Positions 14,730 through 30,577 of a DNA stretch of 64,000 nucleotides are shown here, piece after piece. The notes under the pieces were generated by a model. It had not been told where the DNA came from and searched no databases. It was given only the letters and a program-made list of their open reading frames with translations. The DNA is taken from IMG/VR virus record IMGVR_UViG_3300045988_005753. One strand, written 5' to 3'. Within the stretch, counting starts at the first letter, position 1. The number at the start of each line of letters is the position of its first letter. Position numbers and translations under genes: made by a program. This DNA is from a virus. Lineage: Duplodnaviria; Heunggongvirae; Uroviricota; Caudoviricetes.

Positions 14730-15905
14730 ATGGCAGTAGGTGAAATTCAAATTAGTGCCTTGCCACAAGCGGCCTTACCAATTGATTTGAGTGATATCTT
14801 CCATCTTAAGCAAGGTGTTGAGGATAAAAGATGTACGCTTGAACAGTTGTTAGCACCTCACGCATCTTTGAGGAATAACCCTCATGGTGTAACGAAATCG
14901 CAAGTAGGTCTTGATAATGTTATTAACTCTCTTCAATTAGTTGCAGCTAATAACTTGTCAGACATTGTAAATGTTGCTGAGGCAAGAGCAAATCTACAAA
15001 TTATGTCGTCAGAGGAAGTGAATAACTTAATTCAGCAACATATTGACGACAAAAGTAACCCACATAACACAACGAAAGCACAGGTCGGTTTAAGTAATGT
15101 TCAGAACTGGACAACATCTAATCTGTACAATGAAGATGCTGATAAGTACGCTACCGCGAAAGCAGTTAATAATTTATACAAAGCTATCCAAGCATCATAT
15201 CCAGTGGGGACTATTCATCTGTCTGTTAACTCTGCTAACCCATCCACTTACTTGCTTTGTGGAGGTACTTGGGAGTTAGTTTCTAAAGGTAGAGCACTAG
15301 TTGGTTATGATACAGATTCCAGACCTGTTGGTTCAACGTTTGGTTCTCAGACTGTAGCATTAACAAATAATAATTTACCAGCACATACTCACTCTATCTA
15401 TCTAACAGGTGGTGGTCATACACACTCTGCAAGTGTATCTATCTCTAGTTTTGATTATGGTTCAAAAAGTACATCAACTTTTGATTACGGTACAAAAACG
15501 ACTAATAGTGCTGGTGCTCACACTCACACGTTTAGTGGCACAACAAGTAATGCTGGTAACCACAACCATAGAGTTCCTATGAGGGGTAATGATAGGGGTG
15601 GCACAAACGCTATTACTGCATCTGCTGATGCTGGTGTTGGTAATGCTATGTATACTGATTTAGCTGGTGCTCACACCCATAGCTTCTCAGGTACAACTGC
15701 ATCATCTGGTGCTCATAGCCATACTGTCGCAATTGGTGCTCACAGCCACACTGTTAATATTGGTTCGCACAGTCATACAGGCACTGTTACTGTTTCTAGC
15801 TCTGAGCATACACACTCAGGGACATCTGGTTCTGTTGGTGGTGGTCAAGCTTTCAGTGTTGAGCAGCCATCTTTTGTAGTGTATGTGTGGCAGAGAACAG
15901 CTTAA
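14730..15905 (+). CDS. tail fibre protein with His-X-His boxes
   Basis: N-terminal duplicated motif NPHGVTKSQVGLDNV / NPHNTTKAQVGLSNV (phage tail-fibre repeat type); C-terminal HTHS, NHNH and GAHSHTV repeats; ends ...WQRTA like the next gene. Confidence 0.6.
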   Translation: MAVGEIQISALPQAALPIDLSDIFHLKQGVEDKRCTLEQLLAPHASLRNNPHGVTKSQVGLDNVINSLQLVAANNLSDIVNVAEARANLQIMSSEEVNNLIQQHIDDKSNPHNTTKAQVGLSNVQNWTTSNLYNEDADKYATAKAVNNLYKAIQASYPVGTIHLSVNSANPSTYLLCGGTWELVSKGRALVGYDTDSRPVGSTFGSQTVALTNNNLPAHTHSIYLTGGGHTHSASVSISSFDYGSKSTSTFDYGTKTTNSAGAHTHTFSGTTSNAGNHNHRVPMRGNDRGGTNAITASADAGVGNAMYTDLAGAHTHSFSGTTASSGAHSHTVAIGAHSHTVNIGSHSHTGTVTVSSSEHTHSGTSGSVGGGQAFSVEQPSFVVYVWQRTA

Positions 15906-15915
15906 TTTCTTTACA

Positions 15916-15935
15916 GGGGCTTTATAGCCCCTTTT
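15916..15935 (+). terminator. rho-independent terminator between the two fibre genes
   Basis: GGGGCT (15916-15921), loop TTAT, AGCCCC (15926-15931), then TTTT. Confidence 0.5.
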
Positions 15936-15951
15936 AAGAGGAAAATTCATA

Positions 15952-18501
15952 ATGGCAGATTACAAATTGAGTCAATTAAACTCAATCGACACAATTCGTT
16001 CAGAAGACCTATTGCACATCAGAGTTAAGAAAAGACCTGAAATGTTGGGTGATGAAGACCGCAGAATGACCTATCAAGACTTCTTAGCTTCCTTCAAACT
16101 AGAAAGGTTTGTTCAGATTGCTGGAAGTAATATGACTGGGGATTTAGGTATTGTCAAGTTACTTTATGGTGGTAAGGCAGTATTTGACCCTACAGGTTCT
16201 TCTGAAATTACTATTGGGGATGTTTTAAAGACTTTTAAACTTAATGCAAATGGTCTTAAACTAACTATTGCAGATGCTTCAAGGTCAGCAACTGTTTATC
16301 ATACTCTGAATAAGCCAAGTCCTAATGAGCTTGGTATGAGAACTAATGAAGAGAATGACGCAAGATATGCAAGACTTGCTATCACAAACACATTCTCTGG
16401 AACTCAAAATATTCAAGGTGATGCTAACTTACTTCGCCTTAGAAACCAAAATGCAAATAATGCACAATACATCGAAGGTGTAAACCTAGATGGTTCGGCT
16501 AGATGGTGGGTTGGTATTGGTAGTAATGGCTCTGATGAAGTAAAGCTGTACAATAACAAATACAACTCAGCCTTGACTGTTGCAAGTAATGTCTCTGTTA
16601 ATAAGTCTTTAGCAATCACTGGTCAAGTTCAACCTTCAGATTTCTCTAACTTAGATGCTAGATACTTCACTCAGACAGTTGCTAATCAGAGATTTGCACA
16701 GTTAGCTGCTAATAATAATTTCACGGGCACTAACACGTTTAGTAGAAATCTAACCATCATTAGTGACAGTGCTGCTTTAAGGTTGAAAAATGCAACAGCT
16801 AGCTCACTATTCATTCATGGTGTTGACTCTCAGAACACTAACAGGTGGTATGTAGGGAACGGGGATAACACAGCCTCTGTGCTGCTACACAACTATGTAC
16901 ACGGTTCAAATATCAGGCTTGATAATGGCTATATCTCAGTCAACCAGAACTTCAGAATCACTGGTCAAGTTCAACCTTCGGATTGGACTAATATTGACTC
17001 TAGATATATTCCGGCAGCAACATTAAGTACGATTGCAAGAACTAATGCACAAAATACTTTTAATGGTGTACAGAAAGTTGTTACGGATAATGAAGCCCTA
17101 ATTGTGAAAAACTCTACTCAGAACAGACCATTGTATATCCGTGGTGTGGACACTGCTAATGTGTCAAGGTGGTGGGTAGGTGTTGGTAGGGCAGATAATA
17201 ATGATGTAACCCTAAATAACAGTTATTCTGGAACCCAATTGGTTCTCGGGAATACAACATCATACATTAACAAAACATTGACTATTGCTGGACAAGTTCA
17301 ACCTTCAGATTTCTCTAACTTAGATGCTAGATACTTTACGCAAAGTGCTAGTGATAGTAGATACCTAAGAATCAGAAGCACTAGCTTCAATGTGGGAAAC
17401 ACTGATAAGTGGGCTAAAATTGCCACTGTTGTGATGCCACAATCAGCATCCACTGCTGTTATTGAGGTATTTGGTGGGTCAGGTTTTAATATTAATACAC
17501 CAAACCAAGCAGGTAAATGTGAAATTGTTCTGCGAACTTCAAATAACAATCCAAAGGGCTTAAATGTTGTTGCTTGGAGAACATCAGAGAACACCATTAT
17601 CAGGGATATTGGTTATGTGAATACTTCTGGAGACACCTATGATATTTACTATCTTGCTGGTACGCATCAAAACAGCACAACGACAAGGGTTCAGTCTTCT
17701 AGTAATGCAAGTGTACAGTTGTTTGAAGTCCCACAGACATTTGATGATGCTCCACAAGGTATTGTGAAGGGTACAATTGCAAAATACTACACAAGTTTGC
17801 AAAAACCAACCCCTTCAGATATTGGTGCATACACTAAAGCAGAGACTGACCAGAAAATTGCAGAAGCAATTAGTGACTCTACAGACCTGAATAAAATCTA
17901 TCCAGTAGGTATTGTAACGTGGTTTAACAGTAATGTTAACCCTAATACAGCACTTCCTGGTCTAACTTGGACGTACCTGAACAATGGTGTTGGTAGAACT
18001 ATTAGAATTGCAGCAGCAAACGGTTCAGATGTTGCTACAACTGGTGGTTCAGACTCTGTAACGTTATCTGTTGGTAACTTACCTTCACATACACACAGTT
18101 TCTCTGCTACCACTTCATCATTTGATTATGGTACTAAGACTTCTAGCACAACTGGTAACCATAACCACAACAGAGGTACTATGGAGATTACTGGTTCATT
18201 TGGTTACTTCAGGAGTGACACTAGCAGCTTCTACACAGCAAGTGGTGCATTCCACCTCGGTAGTCAGGCAGGTTCTAAAGGGTTTACTGGTAATAACTTT
18301 ACTAATGGTATCCCTGTCAACTTCAACGCATCAAGAAACTGGTCTGGTGTAACAAATACAACAGGTAACCATAGCCACACTGTAGGTATTGGTGCTCACA
18401 GTCACACTGTTAGTGGTAACACAGGTGGTACTGGTTCTGGTTCAGCATTTAGTGTTACTAACCAGTTCTATAAGCTAATGGCTTGGGTAAGAACTGCTTA
18501 A
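15952..18501 (+). CDS. long tail fibre protein
   Basis: 849 aa; three internal ~110 aa repeats each containing ITGQVQPSD(F/W)(S/T)N(L/I)D(A/S)RY; C-terminal His-box module GNHNHN, GNHSHTVGIGAHSHTV ending ...WVRTA. Confidence 0.6.
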   Translation: MADYKLSQLNSIDTIRSEDLLHIRVKKRPEMLGDEDRRMTYQDFLASFKLERFVQIAGSNMTGDLGIVKLLYGGKAVFDPTGSSEITIGDVLKTFKLNANGLKLTIADASRSATVYHTLNKPSPNELGMRTNEENDARYARLAITNTFSGTQNIQGDANLLRLRNQNANNAQYIEGVNLDGSARWWVGIGSNGSDEVKLYNNKYNSALTVASNVSVNKSLAITGQVQPSDFSNLDARYFTQTVANQRFAQLAANNNFTGTNTFSRNLTIISDSAALRLKNATASSLFIHGVDSQNTNRWYVGNGDNTASVLLHNYVHGSNIRLDNGYISVNQNFRITGQVQPSDWTNIDSRYIPAATLSTIARTNAQNTFNGVQKVVTDNEALIVKNSTQNRPLYIRGVDTANVSRWWVGVGRADNNDVTLNNSYSGTQLVLGNTTSYINKTLTIAGQVQPSDFSNLDARYFTQSASDSRYLRIRSTSFNVGNTDKWAKIATVVMPQSASTAVIEVFGGSGFNINTPNQAGKCEIVLRTSNNNPKGLNVVAWRTSENTIIRDIGYVNTSGDTYDIYYLAGTHQNSTTTRVQSSSNASVQLFEVPQTFDDAPQGIVKGTIAKYYTSLQKPTPSDIGAYTKAETDQKIAEAISDSTDLNKIYPVGIVTWFNSNVNPNTALPGLTWTYLNNGVGRTIRIAAANGSDVATTGGSDSVTLSVGNLPSHTHSFSATTSSFDYGTKTSSTTGNHNHNRGTMEITGSFGYFRSDTSSFYTASGAFHLGSQAGSKGFTGNNFTNGIPVNFNASRNWSGVTNTTGNHSHTVGIGAHSHTVSGNTGGTGSGSAFSVTNQFYKLMAWVRTA

Positions 18502-18580: not shown

Positions 18581-18775
18581 ATGCCTACAATCCTAGCAAT
18601 TCTTCTAAAAAATCTAGGTAGCTTCTTCTGGAAACTCATTTTATCCCTTCTGAGTGAATACATGATTGAGAAAGTGTTCTTTAAGCTTGCAAGATACCTT
18701 GCGAGTAAAACAGACACACCTATTGATGATGAGTTCGTAGATAACTTAGAAAAAGCTTTTAAGGGGGAGAAATAA
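18581..18775 (+). CDS. hypothetical small protein
   Basis: 64 aa ORF with GAGG 6 nt upstream of the ATG; hydrophobic N-terminal half. Confidence 0.4.
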   Translation: MPTILAILLKNLGSFFWKLILSLLSEYMIEKVFFKLARYLASKTDTPIDDEFVDNLEKAFKGEK

Positions 18776-19147
18776 ATGAAGTGGCTAGAGGAAGCTTTTA
18801 AAAATAATATTGGTGCAATTGTAGTTGGTATTTTTAGTGTTATCGGGATGTATACCACTATGCAAGTTTCAAGTGGTAAGCAAGAAGTGTCTGTCACAAC
18901 AAAGTTACAGCAGCTAGATAATTATTCCAAAAGTAACTATTCAGCTATTCGTGATTTACAGTCTGACATGAGACTAATTCAGCTAGGGATGGAGAACCAG
19001 AAAGTCCAGTTAGAGAATGTTAAGGGTGAGAATGCGAAACTTACCAAAACTCTTGATAAATTCTCTGACAGTGTGAACAATCTGGCCCAATCAGTATCAG
19101 CCTTGCAAGCTATTACTGAAAAGAACACAAAGAATACTGAAAAATAA
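18776..19147 (+). CDS. hypothetical membrane-anchored coiled-coil protein
   Basis: 123 aa; one N-terminal hydrophobic helix (IGAIVVGIFSVIGMY) then heptad-like region; overlapping stop/start with the upstream ORF. Confidence 0.4.
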   Translation: MKWLEEAFKNNIGAIVVGIFSVIGMYTTMQVSSGKQEVSVTTKLQQLDNYSKSNYSAIRDLQSDMRLIQLGMENQKVQLENVKGENAKLTKTLDKFSDSVNNLAQSVSALQAITEKNTKNTEK

Positions 19148-19155
19148 AATTTTAA

Positions 19156-19181
19156 GGCTCCCGTAAAAAGGAGCCTTTTTT
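19156..19181. terminator. bidirectional rho-independent terminator between convergent gene blocks
   Basis: GGCTCC (19156-19161) pairs with GGAGCC (19170-19175); A-run upstream and T-run downstream; sits between a + strand stop at 19147 and a - strand stop at 19185. Confidence 0.6.
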
Positions 19182-19184
19182 GTT

Positions 19185-20084
19185 TTATTTACCTACTGAC
19201 AAAGGTGCTTCAATCTTCCCTGCATGTTGGTAGTTGTTAATACCACCAATAAAATCACTTGCAGTAAGATGTTTCAGGTCACTTAAAGTATTAAGTGGTA
19301 GACCAATCTCAAAAGTTGGTGCATGGAACTCTTCATTGTTCATCAGTTCATAAACCTGCTTCATATGGTTCTGATAAATCTGAGTATCTCCAAAGACACC
19401 TATCAAGTACCGTGGAGTGTATCCAGTCATCTTGCAAAGAACTTCTAAGATGAAGCCATAAGACGCAATGTTAAATGGAAGTCCTAAAAAGGTGTCTACA
19501 GAACGCTGATACCATTGCAAATCCACTTCACCTTCATTAGTGATATAAATCTGAAACAGAACATGACAAGGTGCTAAAGCCATTGAGTTTGCTGCAATAT
19601 CTGCTGCATTCCAAGCATTAACAAGCATGTAACGGTCTGTGATATCACCCTTCATCTTCGTTACTAAGGTCTCTAGTTGGTCTACAACACAACCATTATG
19701 ACCTTCGAAGTTTCTCCACTGGACCCCATAGATTCTCCCACCTGCATCTTCTAACCAATCTTGTTCAGAAGAATAATTAGAACTTAACCAGCGTTTAAAA
19801 TCATCTGACCAGATAGTCCAGCGTTCCCCATCATTTTCACCCCAAGTACGGTAACGGAGTTCACCAAGTTTATTCTCACCATTCAGGAACCATAAAGCTT
19901 CCCCAATAACTTGCCGTGTAAACACCTGTTTAGATGTTAAGAGTGGGAAACCAGTGCGCATATCAAAACGAAATTTTGGTGGAGCAAATGCAGAGATAAC
20001 ATCTCCAGTTCGTGTAGTACGCAGTTCACCAACGGATAAAACATGGTTCAGGATATTTTTGTAACTTGTATCTGCTTGTGACAT
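19185..20084 (-). CDS. thyA: thymidylate synthase
   Basis: 299 aa; contains the catalytic LAPCH motif with flanking QFY-type and RSxD-type context characteristic of ThyA. Confidence 0.85.
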   Translation of the reverse strand: MSQADTSYKNILNHVLSVGELRTTRTGDVISAFAPPKFRFDMRTGFPLLTSKQVFTRQVIGEALWFLNGENKLGELRYRTWGENDGERWTIWSDDFKRWLSSNYSSEQDWLEDAGGRIYGVQWRNFEGHNGCVVDQLETLVTKMKGDITDRYMLVNAWNAADIAANSMALAPCHVLFQIYITNEGEVDLQWYQRSVDTFLGLPFNIASYGFILEVLCKMTGYTPRYLIGVFGDTQIYQNHMKQVYELMNNEEFHAPTFEIGLPLNTLSDLKHLTASDFIGGINNYQHAGKIEAPLSVGK

Positions 20085-20085
20085 A

Positions 20086-20532
20086 TCAAAAGTGCCCTTT
20101 TACTTGTGGAACATAAATTTCAAAGGTGGCTTTACCATCCTCTGATGGTTTTGACTGTACCTTTGTAAATACACGGTTATCATACAGCTTCTCAAAGAAG
20201 TTTTCAAAAGGTAAATACACAGTGGCCTCTTCAGTAACTTTATGGAAAACTGTATGGAAAACTACACCATCAAGATTCTGGTAAAGCTCTTTGATGAAGT
20301 GGTCTTTCACAATCTGACTGCTAGTTGTTTCCAGCTTAATGTTCGAGATTGCTGAACCTACAGCCATATAGCCCATGACACGTTTCTTCTCAGTATGCTT
20401 AATCTTACCATCTTTGTAAGCCATAATGAGATTGGAGAGAATCTTCACACCATAATACTTTTCAAGGTGAGTGGGTACGCCATAAAAACCTAATGCGAAG
20501 TTTTCAGAGTGGATAATGTTTTCACGTTTCAT
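20086..20532 (-). CDS. hypothetical protein
   Basis: 148 aa ORF packed between thyA and the HTH gene. Confidence 0.45.
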   Translation of the reverse strand: MKRENIIHSENFALGFYGVPTHLEKYYGVKILSNLIMAYKDGKIKHTEKKRVMGYMAVGSAISNIKLETTSSQIVKDHFIKELYQNLDGVVFHTVFHKVTEEATVYLPFENFFEKLYDNRVFTKVQSKPSEDGKATFEIYVPQVKGHF

Positions 20533-20533
20533 A

Positions 20534-20833
20534 TTAATCTGCCAACCTTAAATTAAAATTAACACCAAATTTTTCACATACTCCCAACATATACTCAAGG
20601 GAGACATTACCAGTGAGATGAATTATGTTGGATACACGAGCCTGAGAGATACCACAAATTTTAGCAACTTGCTCTTGAGAAAGACCTCTGGATTTAATCT
20701 CTCTCTTAAAACGATGTGCAACGAAATCTCTCATTTCGTCTACATCCATTGGACAAATATAACTCTCCATTTCAGCCTCTCTATCAGCCTCCCAATCATC
20801 TTGTGGGGCATAAGGGTCAAAAACCTCATTCAT
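20534..20833 (-). CDS. helix-turn-helix (XRE-type) DNA-binding protein
   Basis: LSQEQVAKICGISQARVSNI is a canonical HTH motif; the track start at 20863 is a TTG, while the internal ATG at 20833 overlaps the upstream stop, so the shorter start is preferred. Confidence 0.5.
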   Translation of the reverse strand: MNEVFDPYAPQDDWEADREAEMESYICPMDVDEMRDFVAHRFKREIKSRGLSQEQVAKICGISQARVSNIIHLTGNVSLEYMLGVCEKFGVNFNLRLAD

Positions 20834-21038
20834 CTTTCTTCTTCCGTTTGCGTGAAGTATCAATCAACGAATCTATGTTTGTAGCCCTAACCTTTTCACG
20901 TTCATCATTAAGATAATCATCAAGAGCCTTTTCAATCTGTGAATCATCTTGACAGATAACTGTAAAGACTGTAAAGCCGTCTGTATCGTCAATTATCTTA
21001 CCATAACCGCTTCTGGGATGTAACTTTTTAAGAGCCAT
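20826..21038 (-). CDS. hypothetical small protein with basic C-terminus
   Basis: 70 aa ORF, 8-nt overlap with the downstream HTH gene. Confidence 0.4.
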   Translation of the reverse strand: MALKKLHPRSGYGKIIDDTDGFTVFTVICQDDSQIEKALDDYLNDEREKVRATNIDSLIDTSRKRKKKDE

Positions 21039-21039
21039 A

Positions 21040-21423
21040 TTAGATACCTGTGCAGCTTCTGTTTTCTAAGAAATACTCAACACCATACATAGCTTTTTGC
21101 ATCAAATCTTCTTTAAACTGGATACGATGGTTGAGCATAGCCTGTACATCAATATCATCATGGTGCTTCTCTTTAATATTTGCAGATTGCAGGAAATACT
21201 CTGCAAGAACGCGATATTGATAGTCAGTCACCTTGTCAGTCATCTCTGTCAAAGATTCTTCAGAGATTGGTTTAAGTAGCTCACCATTAGCTAGAGCAAC
21301 ACCTTTTACAATCTGGCAAGTATCTTCTGGAACACCTGACAAGTCCACATTTGGGAGTTCTGTTGCATTGACTGGTAAATTCATTGCCATAACCATTGCA
21401 GCAGCTAATAAAATCTTTTTCAT
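21040..21423 (-). CDS. secreted/periplasmic protein with N-terminal signal peptide
   Basis: MKKILLAAAMVMAMNLPVNA has the n-, h- and AxA-like cleavage features of a Sec signal peptide; GAGG 5 nt upstream of the ATG. Confidence 0.5.
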   Translation of the reverse strand: MKKILLAAAMVMAMNLPVNATELPNVDLSGVPEDTCQIVKGVALANGELLKPISEESLTEMTDKVTDYQYRVLAEYFLQSANIKEKHHDDIDVQAMLNHRIQFKEDLMQKAMYGVEYFLENRSCTGI

Positions 21424-21467
21424 AATGACCTCAAAGTTATATTAAATTTTGTATTACATTGAGTATA

Positions 21468-21496
21468 AAAATAAGCTATAACACCTGACTTGTCAA
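21468..21496 (-). promoter_or_regulatory. candidate sigma70-like promoter TTGACA-N17-TATTTT (read on the - strand)
   Basis: Reverse complement of 21491-21496 is TTGACA; a TATTTT hexamer follows after a 17-nt spacer; lies about 45 nt upstream of the 21423 start. Confidence 0.3.
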
Positions 21497-21530
21497 CAGA
21501 TTTTATAGCTTATTTGGCAGATTTTTTATA

Positions 21531-21641
21531 AGGCTACTGCCATCCTTCCATACATTACCTAACCAAGCCGAACATCACACAACCAGACCGAGCCGCACCC
21601 CGCCTTATTAAAAGACCCTGTTTAAAGACCTTTTAAAAAGG
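21531..21641 (-). repeat. intergenic module copy 1: GT-rich tract (CA-rich on + strand) plus conserved ~39-nt AT-rich core
   Basis: + strand 21531-21602 has almost no G or T runs (GCCGCACC motif); core CCTTATTAAAAGACCCTGTTTAAAGACCTTTTAAAAAGG at 21603-21641 is nearly identical to 22878-22915. Confidence 0.5.
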
Positions 21642-21657
21642 AGCCTCCAAAGAGGCT
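21635..21657 (-). terminator. rho-independent terminator after gene 21669..22109
   Basis: AGCCTC (21642-21647) and GAGGCT (21652-21657) form a stem; on the - strand it is followed by CC then TTTTT. Confidence 0.45.
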
Positions 21658-21668
21658 ACCTAGTCAAC

Positions 21669-22109
21669 TTAGAAAGGTTTTCTACGTTGCTTGTTAATGT
21701 TAGCTTTCATAGCAGCTAAATGGTTTTGCTGTTCAATTAGTCGTGAACGTTCTTGATGGCTAAGTGCCATAGTGTTCACATTCTCAATTGCTTGAGTGGC
21801 TTGCTTTAAAGCTCGACCAATCTTACCAGACATTTTACGTTTTGCAATAGTTGCTTGATGTTTAGGCTCAACCACACGATAACCAACACCCATTGAAGCA
21901 ACCAGATAAATCTTCTCTTCTTTAAGAAGCTTTTCAATAAACTTCTCAAGTCGGTTTAGACGTGTAAGTGCATAAGCCTTCATTTCATCTTCGTACTTAA
22001 CAATGTCACCTTGATAAGTTGGCTTCACAATACCTAAGAAGGTATCCATCTCAGAGTGTGATACAGTGTCACCGTAACTAAACTTTGCTGCTAATGCTTT
22101 TGTATTCAT
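21669..22109 (-). CDS. hypothetical protein
   Basis: 146 aa ORF, basic C-terminus. Confidence 0.45.
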   Translation of the reverse strand: MNTKALAAKFSYGDTVSHSEMDTFLGIVKPTYQGDIVKYEDEMKAYALTRLNRLEKFIEKLLKEEKIYLVASMGVGYRVVEPKHQATIAKRKMSGKIGRALKQATQAIENVNTMALSHQERSRLIEQQNHLAAMKANINKQRRKPF

Positions 22110-22111
22110 AA

Positions 22112-22717
<606 letters not shown>

Positions 22718-22790
22718 TTAGTTGATTGTTAAGTTGTTTGTAAAGAACCCTCAATAGAAGACTCTTTAGAAACTTGGTAGATTTTTAACG

Positions 22791-23121
22791 TGGCTACTAC
22801 CATCCACCCATACCATACCATACCAAACCTGACCAAATCTTGCCGCACCCAACCTGACCTCGCCTAACCTTACCACACCTCATTAAAAGACCCTTTTAAA
22901 GACCTTTTAAAAAGGTAAGTCTCATTTTAATGTAGCTGAGACTAACTACCCATACCTTACCGCACCGGACCTTACCGGACCGCACATCGCCGCACCAAAC
23001 CAAACATCACATTACCTGACCTCACCGCGCCTTACCATACCTCACTTAAAAACCCTCTTAGAAAGACTCTTAAGTGATGCTGGTGAGTACCCGTTGGTTT
23101 ATGCTGCTCAGTATACTCACC
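22791..23121 (-). repeat. intergenic module copies 2 and 3: two tandem units of hairpin + AT-rich core + GT-rich tract
   Basis: Hairpins GGTGAGTA/TACTCACC (23082-23121) and AGTCTCA/TGAGACT (22918-22943); core at 22878-22915 and a degenerate core at 23046-23072; CA-rich tracts 22791-22877 and 22945-23046 with GCCGCACC and TACCATACC repeats. Confidence 0.5.
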
Positions 23122-23133
23122 AAATTTTCTATG

Positions 23134-23322
23134 TCAACAACTTTCTAATAAAGTTTTATGAAGATTTTGCTTAACAACTCGCCTCACATGCCTATGTTCT
23201 TTCTTAATAAAGAGTGACCTCTTCTTGATAGAGCGCCTATTCTTGTAAGTATTACTAGGATACTTATCATGAACCGGACAACAACTACCCGGATTTGTAA
23301 ACTTGATAATCTCTCTTTTCAC
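23134..23322 (-). CDS. hypothetical small basic protein
   Basis: 62 aa ORF whose start overlaps the ligase stop. Confidence 0.35.
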   Translation of the reverse strand: MKREIIKFTNPGSCCPVHDKYPSNTYKNRRSIKKRSLFIKKEHRHVRRVVKQNLHKTLLESC

Positions 23323-24422
23323 TATTCATAATCCCTAATAACGAGACCAACAGGGAACTGTAAAGACCCCTTACGAGTCATCTTCTGGAACTGAACCGTT
23401 AAAGGCTTCCCGATAAACTCTTCAGGATGCTCAGCAAGATACTGTTTCTTCTCATGAGTAGTCTTCCATGAGACATCTACAAAGACGTTAGGAAGAGTCT
23501 CTACAACGAACTTGCCATGACCACGTTTATCGGTCTTGACACCAGTCACTTTAAACTCTTCAGTGTGCATCTTCTTGTGCTTAATCAAGAAATATGAACG
23601 GTGACAACACTCATAGAAGGAGTCTTCAGAGATTGAACGGTACATTGCACCTTCAAACTTAGCTTCAACCCACTTATCATGGGCTTCGTCAAACTCTTCC
23701 CAAGAATTTACACGGATAGTCTGTACAGGAACAACTCTACAGGTATCCCCAAGCTCAACAATGGGTGAGTTATCGATAACTTCACGACGCTCAGGCCAAG
23801 ATTTTGAATTGTCACAGATATCATACCAGTAGAATTTAAGAAGGTGACGGTCTGGATTGTCAGCATTCTTAATCATAGACACAATATCTTCTAAGTCCCA
23901 ACCATGAGCATAAATCTCGCCATCAAAGTCTTCAACTTGCGGGTGTAATTTAAGCAACAAAAGCAAATCTGGGATTAGTTCTGCTGGAACGTTGTAAACA
24001 GTATTCTCACGAGAATAAGCCGTGAAACTAACTGTATCAGCATCTCTTGAAATTCTACAACGGACACCATCAAGCTTTGGTTGAGCATCAGCAGGGAACT
24101 TCAGATACTTTGCATGACTAACCTTTGCAGCGTCATGAGCAAGCTGTACACCTACCTTCTCAGTATTCTGTGCAGACTCTTTTGTGTAAGCATAACCCTT
24201 GCGGTCAACTTGCTTTTTATACTTAGCAGCAACTTCAAAGAGAGCTTGCTGTTCAGCGTTACGCTCATTCTTTTTACCGATGTTTTTAGGTTCTGCTGTA
24301 TACTCTTCAAACATCATCTTGCCATTTTCTTTACCGTAGGTTGTAATAACTTTGTCACCTACAGCAACACATGACCAAACGTTGAAGGAACCATCTTTAT
24401 TTTGTTTGTACAGAATTGTCAT
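23322..24422 (-). CDS. ATP-dependent DNA ligase
   Basis: 366 aa; KLDGVRC matches ligase motif I (KxDG adenylation lysine). Confidence 0.75.
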   Translation of the reverse strand: MTILYKQNKDGSFNVWSCVAVGDKVITTYGKENGKMMFEEYTAEPKNIGKKNERNAEQQALFEVAAKYKKQVDRKGYAYTKESAQNTEKVGVQLAHDAAKVSHAKYLKFPADAQPKLDGVRCRISRDADTVSFTAYSRENTVYNVPAELIPDLLLLLKLHPQVEDFDGEIYAHGWDLEDIVSMIKNADNPDRHLLKFYWYDICDNSKSWPERREVIDNSPIVELGDTCRVVPVQTIRVNSWEEFDEAHDKWVEAKFEGAMYRSISEDSFYECCHRSYFLIKHKKMHTEEFKVTGVKTDKRGHGKFVVETLPNVFVDVSWKTTHEKKQYLAEHPEEFIGKPLTVQFQKMTRKGSLQFPVGLVIRDYE

Positions 24423-24427
24423 TCAAA

Positions 24428-24952
24428 TTACCTTAGCATGTGTGATTTTACTGGAATAAAGATACCAAATTGTGAGACTGCTAAACCAGATAGTGACATA
24501 CACTGTTCAGGTAAGTACACAAAAACCCCTGTGTAGAAGTCTATAAAAGAACCATCATCTTGTTTGCAGGCTAGTTTTCCATAACCATAGTTGTACAACT
24601 TTAATGAACCATCATCATACTTTAAGTAGTTCTTGAACTGAACATTAAAAGCATATTCAGAGAACCTTGTGTACAGGTCATAAAGCAATCCAATACTGTC
24701 GTCGACTATTGCTACACCAAACTTTTTACAAATATCTACATAGTTTTTGTATAATTTATTATGATTTTCAGGTGTTGCAAAGTTTGTATACCAATGTTCT
24801 AAGATAGATAACTTAATTGGCTGATTTTTAGAATATTCTAATACCTTCATGTCATACCAAGATTTCCTAAGTCTGACATCATCTAGCCTTAAATTTTGAG
24901 ACACTTCGCGGAAGTTTTTGATGATTATATTTCTGCGCCTATTGTCAATCAT
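24428..24952 (-). CDS. hypothetical protein
   Basis: Track ORF 24428..24985 trimmed to the ATG at 24952, which abuts the upstream stop at 24955. Confidence 0.4.
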   Translation of the reverse strand: MIDNRRRNIIIKNFREVSQNLRLDDVRLRKSWYDMKVLEYSKNQPIKLSILEHWYTNFATPENHNKLYKNYVDICKKFGVAIVDDSIGLLYDLYTRFSEYAFNVQFKNYLKYDDGSLKLYNYGYGKLACKQDDGSFIDFYTGVFVYLPEQCMSLSGLAVSQFGIFIPVKSHMLR

Positions 24953-24954
24953 AA

Positions 24955-25146
24955 TCAATCCTCTGAGTGATACCAAGTGTTGCAAGCATTACATGCGTAA
25001 AGCTCTAAGTCATTTTTATCTGGTTTATGAAAACAGTTCGCTCCGCAGTGACAACGAAATGGTTTTCCACCAACTGTCAGAATGAAGGATTGAACCTTTC
25101 CATCAGGAGTTCGTACAGCATTTTTATGCTTGTCTTCTTTATTCAT
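24955..25146 (-). CDS. small Cys-rich (zinc-ribbon-like) protein
   Basis: 63 aa with CHC...C and CNAC cysteine pairs. Confidence 0.4.
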   Translation of the reverse strand: MNKEDKHKNAVRTPDGKVQSFILTVGGKPFRCHCGANCFHKPDKNDLELYACNACNTWYHSED

Positions 25147-25302
25147 TTGTGCTATTGCCTTTGTCAGATTTCATATAGGACATGTTACTACGCCTTTTAA
25201 TAAAATGTACAACGCATTTTGGTGTATCCTTTGCGTCTTTGATGTGCAATCTCTCGAAACTGTGCACTGTGAAGGTTGCATCTGTCATTGTTTGCTTAGG
25301 TT

Positions 25303-25509
25303 TCATTTTCTCTTACCACCAATCTCTACGTCGATAACTTGAACATCGCCAGCAACATCAAACTTATGAATGATGCTTTCAACAGTGTAAGTCCAACCAT
25401 CAATGCGAACCAACTCACCTTCTCGTGGGACGATTGGATTACGTTGAGCTACGGTTGTAGTGGAGTGAACAACATCATAACGATAGATATAGTTTACTAA
25501 TACTTCCAT
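25303..25509 (-). CDS. hypothetical protein
   Basis: Track ORF 25303..25608 overlaps the lipoprotein gene; the internal ATG at 25509 has GAGG 8 nt upstream and starts just after the lipoprotein stop. Confidence 0.35.
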   Translation of the reverse strand: MEVLVNYIYRYDVVHSTTTVAQRNPIVPREGELVRIDGWTYTVESIIHKFDVAGDVQVIDVEIGGKRK

Positions 25510-25519
25510 CGTGAAAACC

Positions 25520-25777
25520 TCACTCAATAACCGTGGTATGTGATTGACTATTTTTGCCATAGTTATAAGATGTTGTTGTTTGAGAGTTTGGACATCTGAC
25601 AACAACAATATCTCTGCTTATAGCATCACCATTGAGTTTGTAGATTTTGCAGTCTTGCATCTCTGGAGGGAGGCTGTAAGAATCATCTTTGATTTCATAA
25701 GATGGGTTGCAGCCAGCCAGAAAAATTACTCCAAGTGCAACCATTGCTTTCACACAACCCTTAACCTTATTGTTCAC
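25520..25777 (-). CDS. predicted lipoprotein
   Basis: 85 aa; MNNKVKGCVKAMVALGVIFLAGC has a basic n-region, hydrophobic core and an L-A-G-C lipobox. Confidence 0.5.
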   Translation of the reverse strand: MNNKVKGCVKAMVALGVIFLAGCNPSYEIKDDSYSLPPEMQDCKIYKLNGDAISRDIVVVRCPNSQTTTSYNYGKNSQSHTTVIE

Positions 25778-25909
25778 GATAGTCTACCTCTCTGTATGTT
25801 TTTAAATAGTGAGTGATGAGTTCTGGTAATTCACTACGTTTAACGTTTGAACGAAGAAGTGTCCAGTCAAAACCTTTACCAACCCTTCCCCAGAGACTGT
25901 ACATTTTCT

Positions 25910-26143
25910 TCATAGCAACTCCAGAATATCAATACGTTCGCCTTTGAGTACTCCAGTACGGTCTTTTGCAATCTTACCATCAACGATAAGGATGTGTGTA
26001 GACCTTAAAGCGTCGTTGTTAAAGGTTTTTACGAACTTGCTAGGCATGACTACAATGGACATCTCCTGAATTAACTCTGGAGTGTAGCAGTTATCATGAA
26101 GTTGCTGAATAACGTCTGCAAGTGTCATTTTTGATGTCTCCAA
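25910..26143 (-). CDS. hypothetical protein
   Basis: 77 aa ORF in the early leftward operon. Confidence 0.4.
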   Translation of the reverse strand: METSKMTLADVIQQLHDNCYTPELIQEMSIVVMPSKFVKTFNNDALRSTHILIVDGKIAKDRTGVLKGERIDILELL

Positions 26144-26340
26144 TATTCAATATCTACAAGTTCTTGTGCAATACTTTTAAGGTTACTTTTAAGGAAAACT
26201 TTCTCACCACCAGACATGGAAGTGTTATCAATGAGTCTATTCATTCTCTCAAACAACTTCTGCTTACGGTTCTTGATAGTTTCCTTTGATGCACCTTTCA
26301 TCATTGCTGCATGGGTTCTTCCACGGTGGCTCATAATCAC
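26125..26340 (-). CDS. hypothetical basic protein
   Basis: 71 aa ORF immediately downstream of the polymerase gene. Confidence 0.4.
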   Translation of the reverse strand: MIMSHRGRTHAAMMKGASKETIKNRKQKLFERMNRLIDNTSMSGGEKVFLKSNLKSIAQELVDIEYWRHQK

Positions 26341-26395
26341 TCCTATATAAGATATTGTATATGGTACTCTTCCATGAGCACCTTGTCAATACTAA

Positions 26396-29095
26396 TCAGT
26401 GAACCTCAAGCCAGCTTTTACCAACCTTACCAGTACCTGTAACAAGTGTTTCTTTCTTAAGACCTAAGTTTTTAGAAGCTTGTCCATAATACCAGTCAGT
26501 AACTGCTTTCACTTCTGCCGTCATACTTTCTGGACATTCCCAGCTTGTTTCATCGTGATATGCGCAGAGTAAACGAGCACCAATAGCTGGTTGACGACCA
26601 TTTAACTTCATCAAACCTTCGTCAATCATACGACGACAAGCAAGGTTAATTGCCTCATTTTGAATCTGAGCCTCTGAACCCATCAAAAGGTAGTTCAACA
26701 GTTTGTGTGGAGATTTACACCACAACCAAGCTCCAGCAACCTTTACAAAACCCCCTTTAGAGATTGCAGCAGTCTTACCAAACACCTCTTCAAGTGCCTT
26801 TTTAGTTGCTTTGTAGTCAGCTTCCAAGTCATCTAGCAGCTTCTTAATTTTAGGCAAACGGATAAAGTAAGTCTGTTTAGTCAGCGCACCTTCCTGAGTA
26901 GTTGCAGCCTTAATCGTCTTAGCAAACTTCTCATCACCTGCACCGAACAGCAGTGCATAGATACCATTCTTAGCTTTCTTACGACCCTTACTAATCTCAT
27001 GAAGAAGGTTCTCATCCTGAGTAGCACGACAAGTCAAGATGTCCTGCTCATCATTCAAGCTAAAGTAAATACTATTCAGTGTATGCGCATCAGTCCCTGA
27101 ATAGACAACGTACAGGTCATTCTCAGAGTCATAACGAAGGTACTTATCAATCTCTGGGTTGAGGTACTCATCAAAGTGTTTGCAGTAATAGCGTCCATCT
27201 TCTTGACGAATAAACTCAATCTCTTCTTTACCTTGCGTTACCGCTTTGGTGAAGTCTTTATCACCCATAAAGTTACAAAGCAGAACTAACTGGGCCGAGT
27301 TCATATCTACAGAGACAACGTTAGTACCTTCCTCACAAATCCACACTGCCCTCATTGGTTCCCCATAGACAGCAGCACCAGACGGTACGTTTACAATACC
27401 ATATTGTGTCATACGTCCAGTTGAAGTACCAAACACCATTGCACCAGCACTAAGTCGACCATCAGGACGAATCTGGTTCAACCAACCTTTTTCATCATCC
27501 TTTGAGTTCTCAATAGTTCTGCGTCTGTGCATCAAAGTATAGTACTTAGCAATCTTCTGTCCAAGCTCACCTTCAATCGTATCATAAGATGATTCAGTAA
27601 GTTTTGGTGAAGTACGGATTAAGCAAGGCTCAAGCAAATCTGTGTACTTCTTCACAGACCAGTTATGCTCAATGTACTGGACACCTTCATGCTCAACATA
27701 GCTCAAACCACACCGCTCAACCATTTCCTGCCACTTAGGATGCTTTGTAATCATCTTTTTATTGTCTTTGAAACGACAAACTTTGACAGGGCGACCATCT
27801 GAGTCTTTCTTGTAATTCCAATCATCTGGAATCCAGCCAACTGATTTCAAGTAGTCTTTAACAACTGCTACCTGAGTCATGCGAGAAACTTCGAACTCAA
27901 TTGGTGTATATGGTGCATCAATCAAACCTGTGTAGCGACTTGACTCAAGTTCAAAGTGGTTAACAACATGACTGTTATAGTACTTCACAGTTTTGACTGT
28001 TTTTACTGGCTTCCAGTCTTTGCATTTCTTACCAATCTTTGCGTTCAACTCATTGCAAATTGCACGAGCATCCTTCATTGCTACAAAACCTTCCTTGTAC
28101 TCTTCACCAGTTACAGAGTTGGTTGGCGTATAGCAATTTCTCTTTTCAATGTTAAAAATCTTTGTAGTTGGCTTACCAAATGGCTTGATTTCGTATGTCT
28201 GCATCTCACCGTTACGTACCTGCTGACGATACTTTGTTTTAGGGTACTTGGTAATTCTCTTCAGTCCATCTGCATGACCAAATGTTTCAACATACTCATT
28301 CCAAGCTTTTGCAAACTCTTCTCCAGTGACTTTACCTTTGGTCTTAATAGTTGGAGGTAGATGTGGTTCAACCTCTGAGGCAAGCTCATTAGTCAACTTG
28401 TCAAGCTCCTTTACATGGAACTCCATAAGCTCCTTATCAGCTTTCCAACCATTGATAGCTTGTTGACTCATCCAGAAAGATGTTTCTTTAGCTCGCATGT
28501 AGGTTTCATAAGTGTCTATGCCACACTTCTTAAGCTTGAGATACTCATTATCAAGTGCCCGTTTAGTTTTGGCGTTAATACGAATATCTTCTACAACACG
28601 AGTGAAGATTTCTGCATTCCAAACACCCCAATGCTCAATCTCTGGCTTACGAACACCAACACGAGCACCCCATGCAGCCAAGCCATGAGCACCTTTATAA
28701 CCCTTTGGAGTTGGTCTATCCATCCACTGAACACGAGACTGGATAAGAGAATCCTGAAAGAAATTACTCCACGGCTTACACTTTGGATTATCAAAGTTCC
28801 ATAAATCAGGGGCAATGTGATTGAAAACCCACCAGTCATAACCGAGACCATTATGGATGCAAAGACGTTTTGCCTTTAACGCAAACTCAATACCTTCACG
28901 TAAGCCACCCTTAATGTACTTGGTATACTTGTGACCGAGGATAGGCTCGTCTGTAAATACCCATACAGGCGGCTCTTCATCGTCAGATTTATAGTCTGCG
29001 AAAGCCATTACGTGAACTTTAGTGAACTCAAGGAGTAAACCATCAGTTTCTGTATCACCAACTAAATGTAAGTTTTTAAAATCTACGTTTTCCAT
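26396..29095 (-). CDS. DNA polymerase, family A, with 3'-5' proofreading exonuclease domain
   Basis: LVGDTETDGL matches the Exo I motif (Klenow FDTETDSL); KAKNGIYALLFGAGD and YHDE resemble motifs B and C. The track start at 29125 lacks an RBS, whereas the ATG at 29095 has GAGGGAG upstream. Confidence 0.8.
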   Translation of the reverse strand: MENVDFKNLHLVGDTETDGLLLEFTKVHVMAFADYKSDDEEPPVWVFTDEPILGHKYTKYIKGGLREGIEFALKAKRLCIHNGLGYDWWVFNHIAPDLWNFDNPKCKPWSNFFQDSLIQSRVQWMDRPTPKGYKGAHGLAAWGARVGVRKPEIEHWGVWNAEIFTRVVEDIRINAKTKRALDNEYLKLKKCGIDTYETYMRAKETSFWMSQQAINGWKADKELMEFHVKELDKLTNELASEVEPHLPPTIKTKGKVTGEEFAKAWNEYVETFGHADGLKRITKYPKTKYRQQVRNGEMQTYEIKPFGKPTTKIFNIEKRNCYTPTNSVTGEEYKEGFVAMKDARAICNELNAKIGKKCKDWKPVKTVKTVKYYNSHVVNHFELESSRYTGLIDAPYTPIEFEVSRMTQVAVVKDYLKSVGWIPDDWNYKKDSDGRPVKVCRFKDNKKMITKHPKWQEMVERCGLSYVEHEGVQYIEHNWSVKKYTDLLEPCLIRTSPKLTESSYDTIEGELGQKIAKYYTLMHRRRTIENSKDDEKGWLNQIRPDGRLSAGAMVFGTSTGRMTQYGIVNVPSGAAVYGEPMRAVWICEEGTNVVSVDMNSAQLVLLCNFMGDKDFTKAVTQGKEEIEFIRQEDGRYYCKHFDEYLNPEIDKYLRYDSENDLYVVYSGTDAHTLNSIYFSLNDEQDILTCRATQDENLLHEISKGRKKAKNGIYALLFGAGDEKFAKTIKAATTQEGALTKQTYFIRLPKIKKLLDDLEADYKATKKALEEVFGKTAAISKGGFVKVAGAWLWCKSPHKLLNYLLMGSEAQIQNEAINLACRRMIDEGLMKLNGRQPAIGARLLCAYHDETSWECPESMTAEVKAVTDWYYGQASKNLGLKKETLVTGTGKVGKSWLEVH

Positions 29096-29290
29096 TTTTA
29101 CTCCCTCTAAAATCATTAACCCCATACATTACTGCAAAAAATTATAAAAAGCAAGTTGACAATACACTTGACAAGGTGTTAATCTTTGCGAAGTGGGTTT
29201 TTACTTAAAAGGTTACTTAACAGTTTAACTATACAGATACTTTAGAACTCTTAAAAGATTATTTAATAGCTTTTAAAAAGCTTTAAAGTA

Positions 29291-29309
29291 TAACGTATAG
29301 AATACGTTA
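29291..29309. promoter_or_regulatory. perfect inverted repeat in the divergent control region (candidate operator)
   Basis: TAACGTAT-AGA-ATACGTTA, 8-bp arms with a 3-nt spacer, about 45 nt upstream of the 29353 start. Confidence 0.35.
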
Positions 29310-29352
29310 AGATAAAAGATTAAAACTTAATAGTTACTTAAAAGAGGCTTAC

Positions 29353-29775
29353 ATGCAGAAAATGTTTGTTCACCCAGACATAGCTGACTTTGTTAGAGCT
29401 TTGCAGAAGTTGGAAGAACTTGACATTGCTGCTCAACGGGAATATGCTCACCATCACAGGGGAATGGTAGATATACAACATGAAATAGAGTTGTCTGAAA
29501 ACTATGAAGATGACTTAAAATGCTCTGTATTTGAGCATATGAAAGATGTTGCTACAGCGAGACGTAAAGCTAAAGACACAGTTGCTTTACTAGATTCTCT
29601 TAAAAAGAGGTTGCAAAGTGGTACAGACCTGTGTAATCTAGCGTCACTGATTAACGATGTTGAAACTTCTTGGGATAGGCACTATTATCCACGTTCTGAA
29701 AAGACACTTGACTTTTCTTCATCAGAAAACTTAAAATGTTCTAGAAAGAAACTTAACCAACTGAGAGAGAAATAA
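29353..29775 (+). CDS. hypothetical protein
   Basis: 140 aa; AGAGG 6 nt upstream of the ATG; first gene of the rightward block. Confidence 0.45.
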   Translation: MQKMFVHPDIADFVRALQKLEELDIAAQREYAHHHRGMVDIQHEIELSENYEDDLKCSVFEHMKDVATARRKAKDTVALLDSLKKRLQSGTDLCNLASLINDVETSWDRHYYPRSEKTLDFSSSENLKCSRKKLNQLREK

Positions 29776-29776
29776 T

Positions 29777-30577
29777 ATGAATATCGATGTAGAAAAGATG
29801 CTTGAAGAAAAAGGTATTGACGAAGCATTTTTAATCAATGCCGTAGAAAGCATGGCTATGATTCTTCGTGGGAACAACTACACAGAACAGTTTATGCCTG
29901 CAAGCTACAACTTGCCTGAAGACAAGTCTGATAACGGTGCTTTTGCAGAACAGGTCAACATGATGCTTTGCGACAAAACACTTGCTTTAGCATCTATCGT
30001 TGTAGGTGTTGATGCTCTTGCAGAGTTCATTTTTTATGAGATGCAGAAAAATGACTATATTGCCATGACCACTGAAGAAAAAGACTTGCTACTACTCGCA
30101 GGTAATGATGAGCTAATTGACCTGTTAATTTCATCAACCAGTGCTGTTATGGCTGCTCTTGAGAAGCGAATGGAAGAGAAGTTGTCACGATATGAAAAAC
30201 TTGATTGGGGTGTAGAAGAACTAAACCCACGAATCAAGGAGATTATCCAGCAAACTAAAGAGTCTTTGGAAGAAGCTGTTGAGAATGACTCTGTAGCTGA
30301 TATAGAACCGCTTCAGGTGAAAGTTGCACTAATGATTCCAGCTATCTCTACGATGATGAATATCGTTGCACTAATCCAACTTTCACAGATGATGGGTGTG
30401 AGTATTGAGTTCATTGAAGAGATGACTGGTGGCGTCAGTATGCAAGCAATCAATGATGTTTTGGTGAACATTGGTGCTTCCATCATTGAAGAGAAACTAC
30501 GCATCAACTTCGGTGATGATTTTGTGAAGCAACTCTCAGCTATGGCTGAAAAAGAGTCTGCTGAGCAACTACACTAA
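29777..30577 (+). CDS. hypothetical acidic protein
   Basis: 266 aa ORF, start adjacent to the upstream stop. Confidence 0.45.
   Translation: MNIDVEKMLEEKGIDEAFLINAVESMAMILRGNNYTEQFMPASYNLPEDKSDNGAFAEQVNMMLCDKTLALASIVVGVDALAEFIFYEMQKNDYIAMTTEEKDLLLLAGNDELIDLLISSTSAVMAALEKRMEEKLSRYEKLDWGVEELNPRIKEIIQQTKESLEEAVENDSVADIEPLQVKVALMIPAISTMMNIVALIQLSQMMGVSIEFIEEMTGGVSMQAINDVLVNIGASIIEEKLRINFGDDFVKQLSAMAEKESAEQLH

Follow-up and report, generated by a model that had tools for sequence, protein, structure and literature searches.

The fibre locus of the virus record IMGVR_UViG_3300045988_005753 (IMG/VR; 64,000 nucleotides (nt), the whole of which is called the window below) raises the question of whether two neighbouring tail fibre genes that end in a similar tip, one of them with three internal repeats, exchange parts by recombination, and whether such recombination swaps modules or resizes the fibre. 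The locus occupies positions 14730-18501 of the window. The comparison with relatives presented here indicates that the phage very probably has two side fibres with tips of the gp37 type, the modules of which are swapped by homologous recombination at conserved connectors.

The window is part of the genome of a Felixounavirus (a Felix O1-like, wV8-type coliphage, myovirus). Region 14730-18501 matched 234 phage records, nearly all from Felix O1-like phages of Escherichia or Salmonella, and was 96.9% identical in nucleotide sequence to Escherichia phage wV8, covering 94% of the region. The two fibre genes proposed in the original prediction were confirmed as open reading frames (ORFs) on the plus strand, which is also the strand of all fibre features given below: 14730-15905 (391 amino acids (aa)) and 15952-18501 (849 aa). 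We refer to them as the short (STF) and long (LTF) tail fibre, names taken over from the electron cryomicroscopy (cryo-EM) study of the congener Bas63. The STF is the orthologue of wV8 gp82, Felix O1 gp76 and Bas63 gp26 and matches phrog_2097 tail fiber (E = 2e-139), and the LTF is the orthologue of wV8 gp83, Felix O1 gp77 and Bas63 gp27 and matches phrog_4277 over its full length, with 120 homologues of 740-856 aa. These Felixounavirus pairs are the same genes in the same order and with the same neighbours as in the window; regarding wV8, gene order at the fibre locus is identical and the neighbours match as well. In wV8, gp82 is annotated as 'tail fiber protein GP37' and gp83 as 'tail fiber protein', flanked by baseplate-wedge genes upstream and by two small ORFs and then a convergent td/frd block downstream. 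The earlier identification of the pair as tail fibres is upheld by this synteny at ~97% and by the fibres of Bas63, which carry the same type of tip. Felix O1 gp77 was found in the virion proteome (Felix O1 genome paper, 2010) and both Bas63 fibres are visible by cryo-EM (Bas63 paper, 2025); by orthology with these, the STF and LTF of the window are predicted components of the virion fibres.

The LTF begins with a conserved region (15952-16335, aa 1-128; 90-99% conserved in the 120 homologues), presumed by analogy to be the baseplate-binding part, because the baseplate-binding domain of Bas63 sits at the fibre N-terminus. Three repeat units follow (aa 129-243, 242-357 and 358-466; pairwise identity 40-45%), which we assign to slot A (16336-16680), slot B (16681-17022) and slot C (17023-17349). 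Three stretches of the LTF matched Pfam family PF20744 (gp37_trimer; E = 2.4e-81 and 268.3 bits, the cut-off being 21.7), and a home-made hidden Markov model (HMM) of the unit found exactly three units, in agreement with the three internal repeats of ~110 aa that had been described from the letters alone. The three repeats are shaft modules. Tandem Repeats Finder reported only a 27-nt GAHSHTV duplication in the STF (15696-15772) and did not see the ~330-nt units of the LTF because these are too divergent. A stretch of unit B (aa 275-344) matched residues 48-117 of T7 gp17 (chain 4A0T; E = 2e-6), including a W-x-x-G-x-G motif and a terminal G-Q-x-V..D motif; this region of gp17 we take to be its 'pyramid' domain.

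Each unit ends in a box of the form ITGQVQPSD..D(A/S)RY, which reads AITGQVQPSDFSNLDARY, RITGQVQPSDWTNIDSRY and TIAGQVQPSDFSNLDARY in the three units. Junction box 1 (AITGQVQPSDFSNLDARYFTQTV) spans 16612-16680, junction box 2 (RITGQVQPSDWTNIDSRYIPAAT) 16954-17022 and junction box 3 (TIAGQVQPSDFSNLDARYFTQSA) 17281-17349. Box 1 is a conserved island (97% at the amino acid level) flanked by variable unit cores, and megablast homology with many relatives stops inside box 3, at query position 2614 (window 17343). Near-identical 47-nt stretches had been reported for boxes 1 and 3; the match is real, although the coordinates given were one base out of register and the true match is an exact identity of 44 nt (16624-16667 with 17293-17336; 94.5% identity over 55 nt). 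The 14 consecutive identical codons that it contains have a probability of ~1e-6 under the codon usage of the window. Box DNA in general is ~80% conserved between slots and between genomes.

Behind the units lies the LTF middle domain (17350-17811, aa 467-620, 154 aa). It was modelled with AlphaFold2 as a beta-sandwich (predicted local distance difference test (pLDDT) 72.6), and the best Foldseek matches of the model were WceF (6TGF; E = 8.5e-7, template modelling (TM) score 0.55) and Acinetobacter phage tailspike domains, so that a beta-sandwich resembling the WceF and tailspike domains is predicted with moderate confidence. Four allele types of the domain were found, one of them unrelated to the others: in LTF relatives of ~790 aa the middle domain is replaced by an unrelated segment (17% identity) with Pfam PF12604 (gp37_C).

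Variation at the locus was compared among the 120 LTF homologues (121 proteins with the window), 27 IMG/VR loci with DNA and single fetched contigs; many of the 120 homologues are from ENA or Logan assemblies. Allele types were defined by clustering at 80% identity. Per-segment identity to the window was bimodal over the homologues, at either ~90-100% or ~20-50% (e.g., ~97% against ~45%), and the two states were freely combined. There were 37 unit-core types in total; counted by slot, there were 11 in slot A, 15 in slot B (called the most variable slot) and 17 in slot C. The head, the variable part of the fibre tip, had 14 types. The 121 LTFs showed 50 A-B-C combinations and 69 combinations of all five slots. 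None of the ten slot pairs passed the four-gamete test, each showing all four combinations for several allele pairs. Regarding single phages, the O157 typing phages (e.g., typing phage 8), ZX4221 and the window differ in slot B only, HY02 has slot B and the head in common with the window and nothing else, and the LTF DNA of wV8, which holds another slot B cassette, is 92-99% identical to that of the window throughout except for aa ~251-340, where it drops from ~96% to ~45%.

Abrupt flips of DNA identity (between 92% or more and 62% or less inside 12 codons) were mapped in 231 genome pairs. Identity flips from 92-99% to ~45% within ~30 nt, and the flips fall only at aa 131-150 (NDARY, the start of unit A), 221-260 (box 1), 331-370 (box 2) and 441-470 (box 3) and at sites in the collar and tip, namely aa 611-630 (start of the collar), 721-745 (descending His boxes) and 801-820 (ascending His boxes). 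At base level, the junctions of the loci L002 and L033 and of phage DaR-2019a, all described below, lie in conserved motifs. Variation of breakpoints among relatives, a check that had been named beforehand, was thus found at the boxes as well as at the His boxes. The four-gamete failures and the breakpoint histogram together point to recombination at the conserved connectors. The original prediction had proposed the conserved segments as substrates for recombination capable of swapping or resizing receptor-binding regions; with varying breakpoints and 69 combinations the swapping of modules stands, whereas resizing finds hardly any support.

It might be argued that no recombination is needed, and that unit cores, middle domain and heads evolve fast by diversifying selection, with the connectors held unchanged by structural constraint. 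Conserved islands do alternate with variable segments, and the Bas63 paper names 'substantial sequence variation between species' as the source of the differences in the repeat domains. However, the alleles are discrete and their DNA is mutually unalignable, yet the flanks are 92-99% identical; the four-gamete failures extend to all slot pairs; and identical cassettes are found in other slots and in the other fibre gene. Unequal rates of evolution are therefore already largely refuted as the explanation of the mosaic, and we consider them very improbable.

Regarding the number of units, 120 of the 121 LTF proteins and 25 of the 26 fetched loci had three units by HMM count. The sole two-unit LTF is the same in both sets (protein P0038, locus L002), a single metagenome contig among ~147 in total. 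Resizing as a common outcome of recombination was therefore rejected: the unit number is near-fixed at three and the one two-unit variant comes from a low-coverage metagenome contig. This LTF of 740 aa (L002, 6001-8223 of ERZ1505402) lies on a SPAdes contig of 6.7x coverage with only 29 nt beyond the gene. It is without unit C, and the crossover falls inside GGTCAGGTTCAACCTTCGGAT of boxes 2 and 3 (the GQVQPSD core). The junction of unit B with box 3 is also present in DaR-2019a, which argues that the two-unit junction is real; the two-unit LTF may have arisen either by natural deletion or through faulty assembly.

Cassettes are also found out of place at constant unit number. Five unit-core types occupy more than one slot. 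Salmonella phage DaR-2019a (MK965969.1), an isolate, carries in slots B-C (nt 757-1379) what the window LTF has in slots A-B (nt 433-1055), at 90.7% identity, a register shift by one unit over 623 nt in an intact ORF, the total of which is still three units; its junctions lie at an NTFSG motif and inside GQVQPSD, and box 2 is the crossover site that it has in common with the two-unit variant. On the metagenome scaffold L030 (ERZ28650236), the same cassette occupies slots A and C (99.6% identity over 281 nt). As a separate observation, no intact full-length LTF ORF was found in the two IMG/VR loci L012 and L021, in line with the Bas63 paper, which remarks on apparently truncated LTFs (EC6, Si3) among the deposited sequences.

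The tips of the two fibres are the second place where modules are shared. The STF contains nine HxH motifs (aa 219, 230, 264, 278, 315, 329, 338, 347 and 360), with GAHSHTV twice and GNHNH, and the LTF four (aa 713, 737, 807 and 816), among them PSHTHS, GNHNH and GAHSHTV. In both proteins the motifs flank a variable head, with four before and five after it in the STF and two before and two after it in the LTF, and the C-terminal residues are ...VWQRTA and ...AWVRTA, respectively. Composition-corrected BLASTP aligned the C-terminal modules at 32% identity over 221 aa (E = 8e-17), beginning in the non-repetitive collar (YPVGTIHL... in the STF, YPVGIVTW... in the LTF), and profile-profile alignment with hhalign reached from the collar through the last residue (probability 99.6%, E = 4.8e-24). 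These alignments identify the two modules as homologous, beyond a mere likeness in His, Gly, Ser and Thr composition, and the shared His-box tip with common last residues that had been noticed at the outset is substantiated by them.

Both tips are also related to the tip of T4 gp37 (PDB 2XGF). STF aa 145-362 matched it at E = 1.8e-26 and the LTF tip at E = 7e-7 with a single sequence and 2.8e-4 with a profile; the homology extends from the collar through the FDYGTK motif and the HxH boxes to the return strand. The STF collar (15189-15380, aa ~154-217) matches PF21939 (Gp10_C) from aa 154 (E = 3.8e-18, 67.2 bits against the Pfam cut-off of 27), aligns with the collars of 2XGF and of T4 gp10 (2FKK, 5HX2) and is conserved in relatives. 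It is followed by the His-box needle around the head (15381-15815), which contains the nine HxH motifs and aligns with 2XGF; within it lies the variable head (15570-15668, aa ~281-313), the variable part among 28 STFs. The LTF collar (17812-18087, aa 621-712) is near-invariant in the genus (94-100% conserved); its PF21939 match (E = 1.5e-4, 23.2 bits) stays under the Pfam cut-off of 27, and it aligns with the STF collar by hhalign. The LTF needle around the head (18088-18417), with its four HxH motifs and match to 2XGF, encloses the variable head (18172-18369, aa ~741-806), and a conserved C-terminal strand (18418-18498; 96-98% conserved) completes the protein. The end of the LTF (...GSAFSVTNQFYKLMAWVRTA) is homologous to that of the STF (...GQAFSVEQPSFVVYVWQRTA) in the hhalign alignment, and the strand would return to the collar as in T4 gp37 and Bas63.

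The Bas63 paper describes both fibres of that phage with a collar, a six-stranded HxH needle and a small head at which the chain doubles back, and it relays that the HxH motifs of the T4 needle coordinate iron ions. By analogy we infer for the STF and LTF tips a trimeric collar, needle and head topology with metal-binding HxH motifs and a receptor-binding head. The interpretation of the His boxes as metal sites of a receptor-binding tip, part of the original prediction, is supported by the homology of both tips to 2XGF and is likewise to be read as predicted. A PDB sequence search with both fibres returned no deposited Felixounavirus fibre chain.

Heads are not confined to one of the two genes. 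The heads of the window STF and LTF are unrelated to each other. Among relatives, several phages (e.g., L020) have an STF tip that matches the LTF tip of protein P0046 over 74 aa with 96% identity, and the STF tip of SPJ41 is identical to the LTF tip of D1-2 over 37 aa. In the genome that encodes P0046 (L033; 1267-5050 of ERZ28585085), STF and LTF share 291 nt at 96.9%, from GNHNH to GAHSHTV, which would give this phage one and the same receptor-binding head on its two fibres. A further locus (L027) has 200 nt common to its STF and LTF, at 91%.

Several points weigh against the interpretation given here and limit how far it can be pressed. The breakpoint histogram is partly circular, because only borders between conserved and variable segments are visible to it, and transitions from conserved to variable sequence at the junctions would arise even without recombination; the case for recombination rests on the four-gamete failures and the displaced cassettes. 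Identity between box 1 and box 3 is 0.83 within a genome and 0.80 between genomes, which gives no sign of ongoing intragenic gene conversion, and the 44-nt identity is no evidence for it; concerted evolution of the boxes was rejected as within-genome identity is barely above that between genomes. The STF and LTF genes of the window share an exact match of 14 nt at the longest, which is too little for efficient exchange between them, and the best local alignment between them reaches 88% over 43 nt. Modelled as a monomer with AlphaFold2 (alignment of 11 sequences), the LTF tip (aa 618-849) had a mean pLDDT of 43, and the model is unusable for fold comparison. Such a failure is expected of an intertwined trimer, and the fold of the LTF tip therefore rests on sequence homology and the Bas63 paper. 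Finally, several of the most striking cases (L030, L033 and L002) are metagenome scaffolds for which chimeric assembly is possible.

The last point can be extended to the whole data set, in that both the mosaic and the displaced cassettes might have been produced by errors in assembling short reads or metagenomes through the repeated boxes, as would fit the 6.7x SPAdes contig of the two-unit variant, the metagenome origin of L030 and L033, and the ENA or Logan source of many of the homologues. We consider this very unlikely. The same patterns are seen in the isolates wV8, HY02, ZX4221, the typing phages, D1-2, SPJ41 and DaR-2019a, and the register shift of DaR-2019a spans 623 nt with an intact ORF. 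The junction of unit B with box 3 occurs independently in DaR-2019a and L002, and the shared boxes measure only 20-55 nt, a length that the final k-mers of an assembly typically exceed.

Many alleles at defined slots between fixed motifs also have a superficially cassette-like appearance, as if a programmed system (a diversity-generating retroelement, an invertase shufflon or conversion from silent cassettes within one genome) diversified the fibres. Such a system is scarcely credible here. The alleles differ along their whole length and not at adenine-specific sites. No silent copies of the 362 known unit cores, the middle domain or the tip were found outside the two fibre genes in the 64-kb window, at protein or nucleotide level, a search that leaves ~24 kb of the genome outside the window and did not include screening of the window ORFs for a reverse transcriptase or invertase. 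Likewise, no nucleotide repeat of the fibre region occurs elsewhere in the window; a separate repeat search covered direct repeats and not inverted ones flanking the cassettes. A silent-cassette or programmed switch was rejected, there being no copies elsewhere in the 64-kb window.

If homologous recombination at the connectors is taken as the cause of the mosaic, the shuffling of shaft cassettes may be a neutral by-product or may itself be selected. In the latter case the LTF shaft would be a three-slot cassette array under diversifying selection, the units of which, too, meet host glycans or a host or immune factor, so that the cassettes would be host-interaction determinants acting by lateral glycan binding or evasion of host factors. 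The numbers of shaft slot alleles (11, 15 and 17) are as high as that of the head (14), the Bas63 authors called the variability of the shaft 'unexpected', and a domain like the middle domain occurs in WceF and in tailspikes that act on glycans. On the other hand, phages listed with E. coli O157 as host have the same head and the same other cassettes and differ in slot B only, which suggests that this slot has little effect on host range. We regard a role of the shaft in host interaction as rather unlikely, more plausible nonetheless than the alternatives discussed above. If true, out-of-register recombination at GQVQPSD/DARY together with the three-unit limit would generate new fibres, and the His boxes would play the same role in moving heads between short and long fibres.

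From the homology, domain layout, mosaic pattern, breakpoint positions and out-of-register and inter-gene copies observed, the following mechanism may be proposed. Both fibres would be trimeric, each ending in a receptor-binding tip of the gp37 type with collar, needle and head. The needle chain would run down and back, carrying the HxH motifs (iron-binding in T4), and the small variable head at the far end would contact the host surface (lipopolysaccharide for the genus). The LTF shaft would consist of three PF20744 units with T7 gp17-like sequence and then the beta-sandwich middle domain. The connectors would be structurally constrained, namely the NDARY that precedes unit A, the ITGQVQPSD..D(A/S)RY that closes each unit, the collar, and FDYGTK/GNHNH and GIGAHSHTV around the head. 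Because connector DNA keeps ~80-100% identity from slot to slot, from one fibre gene to the other and among co-infecting relatives, homologous recombination would cross over there. The outcome would be a combinatorial cassette system in which co-infecting phages trade unit cores, middle domains and heads, with allelic swaps common, out-of-register swaps rare, and head exchange between STF and LTF also arising. The action of a recombination machinery is something we infer, as is the reason for three units, which selection would maintain presumably via a constraint on fibre length.

Among the closest known systems is Bas63, whose LTF has repeat domains (2025); their 'unexpectedly' low conservation was ascribed to sequence variation and not to repeat number. 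Six HxH motifs are reported for its LTF and seven for its STF, whereas the window has four and nine, and its five beta-helix repeat domains were defined by structure, whereas the three similar units of the window were defined by sequence profile. In T4, gp37 forms the distal quarter of a four-protein fibre, whereas the window fibres are one protein each; collar, FDYGTK, HxH boxes and return strand are homologous, the HxH count is seven in T4 gp37 against nine in the window STF and four in the LTF, and the heads are not related in sequence. Next to the window fibre genes, no chaperone resembling gp38 or gp57A was identified. The T7 gp17 structure 4A0T matches one LTF unit in the reported stretch, whereas the window LTF has three in tandem, known by sequence. 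The likeness to the C-terminal domain of T4 gp10 (PF21939; 2FKK, 5HX2) is confined to the collar, gp10 being without a long His-box needle and head. Regarding mode of evolution, modular shuffling at conserved motifs was described for the distal fibre and adhesin genes of T-even phages (Tetart et al. 1996, 1998, in the account given by Trojet et al. 2011). The same logic applies to the GQVQPSD/DARY boxes and His boxes of the window, although in another phage family and with other motifs. Unlike in T-even phages, three equivalent shaft slots permit out-of-register exchange at conserved unit count, and heads pass between two distinct genes whose fibres belong to one virion.

Several further features surround the modules described. 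The N-terminal shaft of the STF contains an internal duplication, NNPHGVTKSQVGLDNV (aa 49-64, 14874-14921) and SNPHNTTKAQVGLSNV (aa 109-124, 15054-15101), with 40% identity over 50 aa (tblastn) and a motif kept in all aligned STF relatives. Between the STF stop and the LTF start lies a GC-rich hairpin followed by TTTT (15915-15936), a weak terminator or attenuator with a stem of 7 bp (folding free energy -16.5 kcal/mol, z = -2.6), which is annotated as a Rho-independent terminator in wV8. A consensus terminator scan did not flag it, because it is followed by only four T. The effect of the hairpin could be to attenuate transcription into the LTF gene or to make the STF transcript more stable. 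Two small conserved ORFs follow the LTF, 18581-18775 directly 3' of it (64 aa, phrog_402; relatives carry PF26925 Phage_PM2_Gpl) and 18776-19147 (123 aa, phrog_4038), the latter with a hydrophobic N-terminal segment and an otherwise coiled-coil-like sequence. A bidirectional terminator-like hairpin with T-runs on both strands (19154-19177) separates the rightward fibre module from the convergent thymidylate synthase gene (19185-20084, minus strand). The GC skew turns from positive to negative over ~19000-30000 of the window and back at ~30 kb, coinciding with the leftward-transcribed block that holds td and adjoining small genes.

Part of these findings confirms published work. Shared nucleotide repeats and T4 gp37-like C-termini were described for Felix O1 gp76/gp77 (Felix O1 genome paper, 2010); the shared tip module (Felix O1, 2010; Bas63, 2025) and the repeat domains (Bas63) are thus already published, and their observation in the window is correct and not new. 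The literature searched contains no description of combinatorial, out-of-register or inter-gene cassette exchange in Felixounavirus fibres. The three-slot, register-shifting cassettes and the head exchange between STF and LTF are a fresh example of well-known tail fibre evolution; the feature is ordinary and well understood, and no new kind of system is revealed by it. Felixounaviruses are widely used for typing and biocontrol of Salmonella and E. coli O157, and their fibres set the host range. The practical gain is a map of natural crossover points (boxes and His boxes) that delimit exchangeable modules, namely the three shaft slots, the middle domain and a head usable in the STF as well as the LTF, and hence a set of ready-made, evolution-tested junctions for the engineering of chimeric fibres. 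For the biology of the genus, the swapping of modules accounts for the shaft variability that the Bas63 study had called 'unexpected'.

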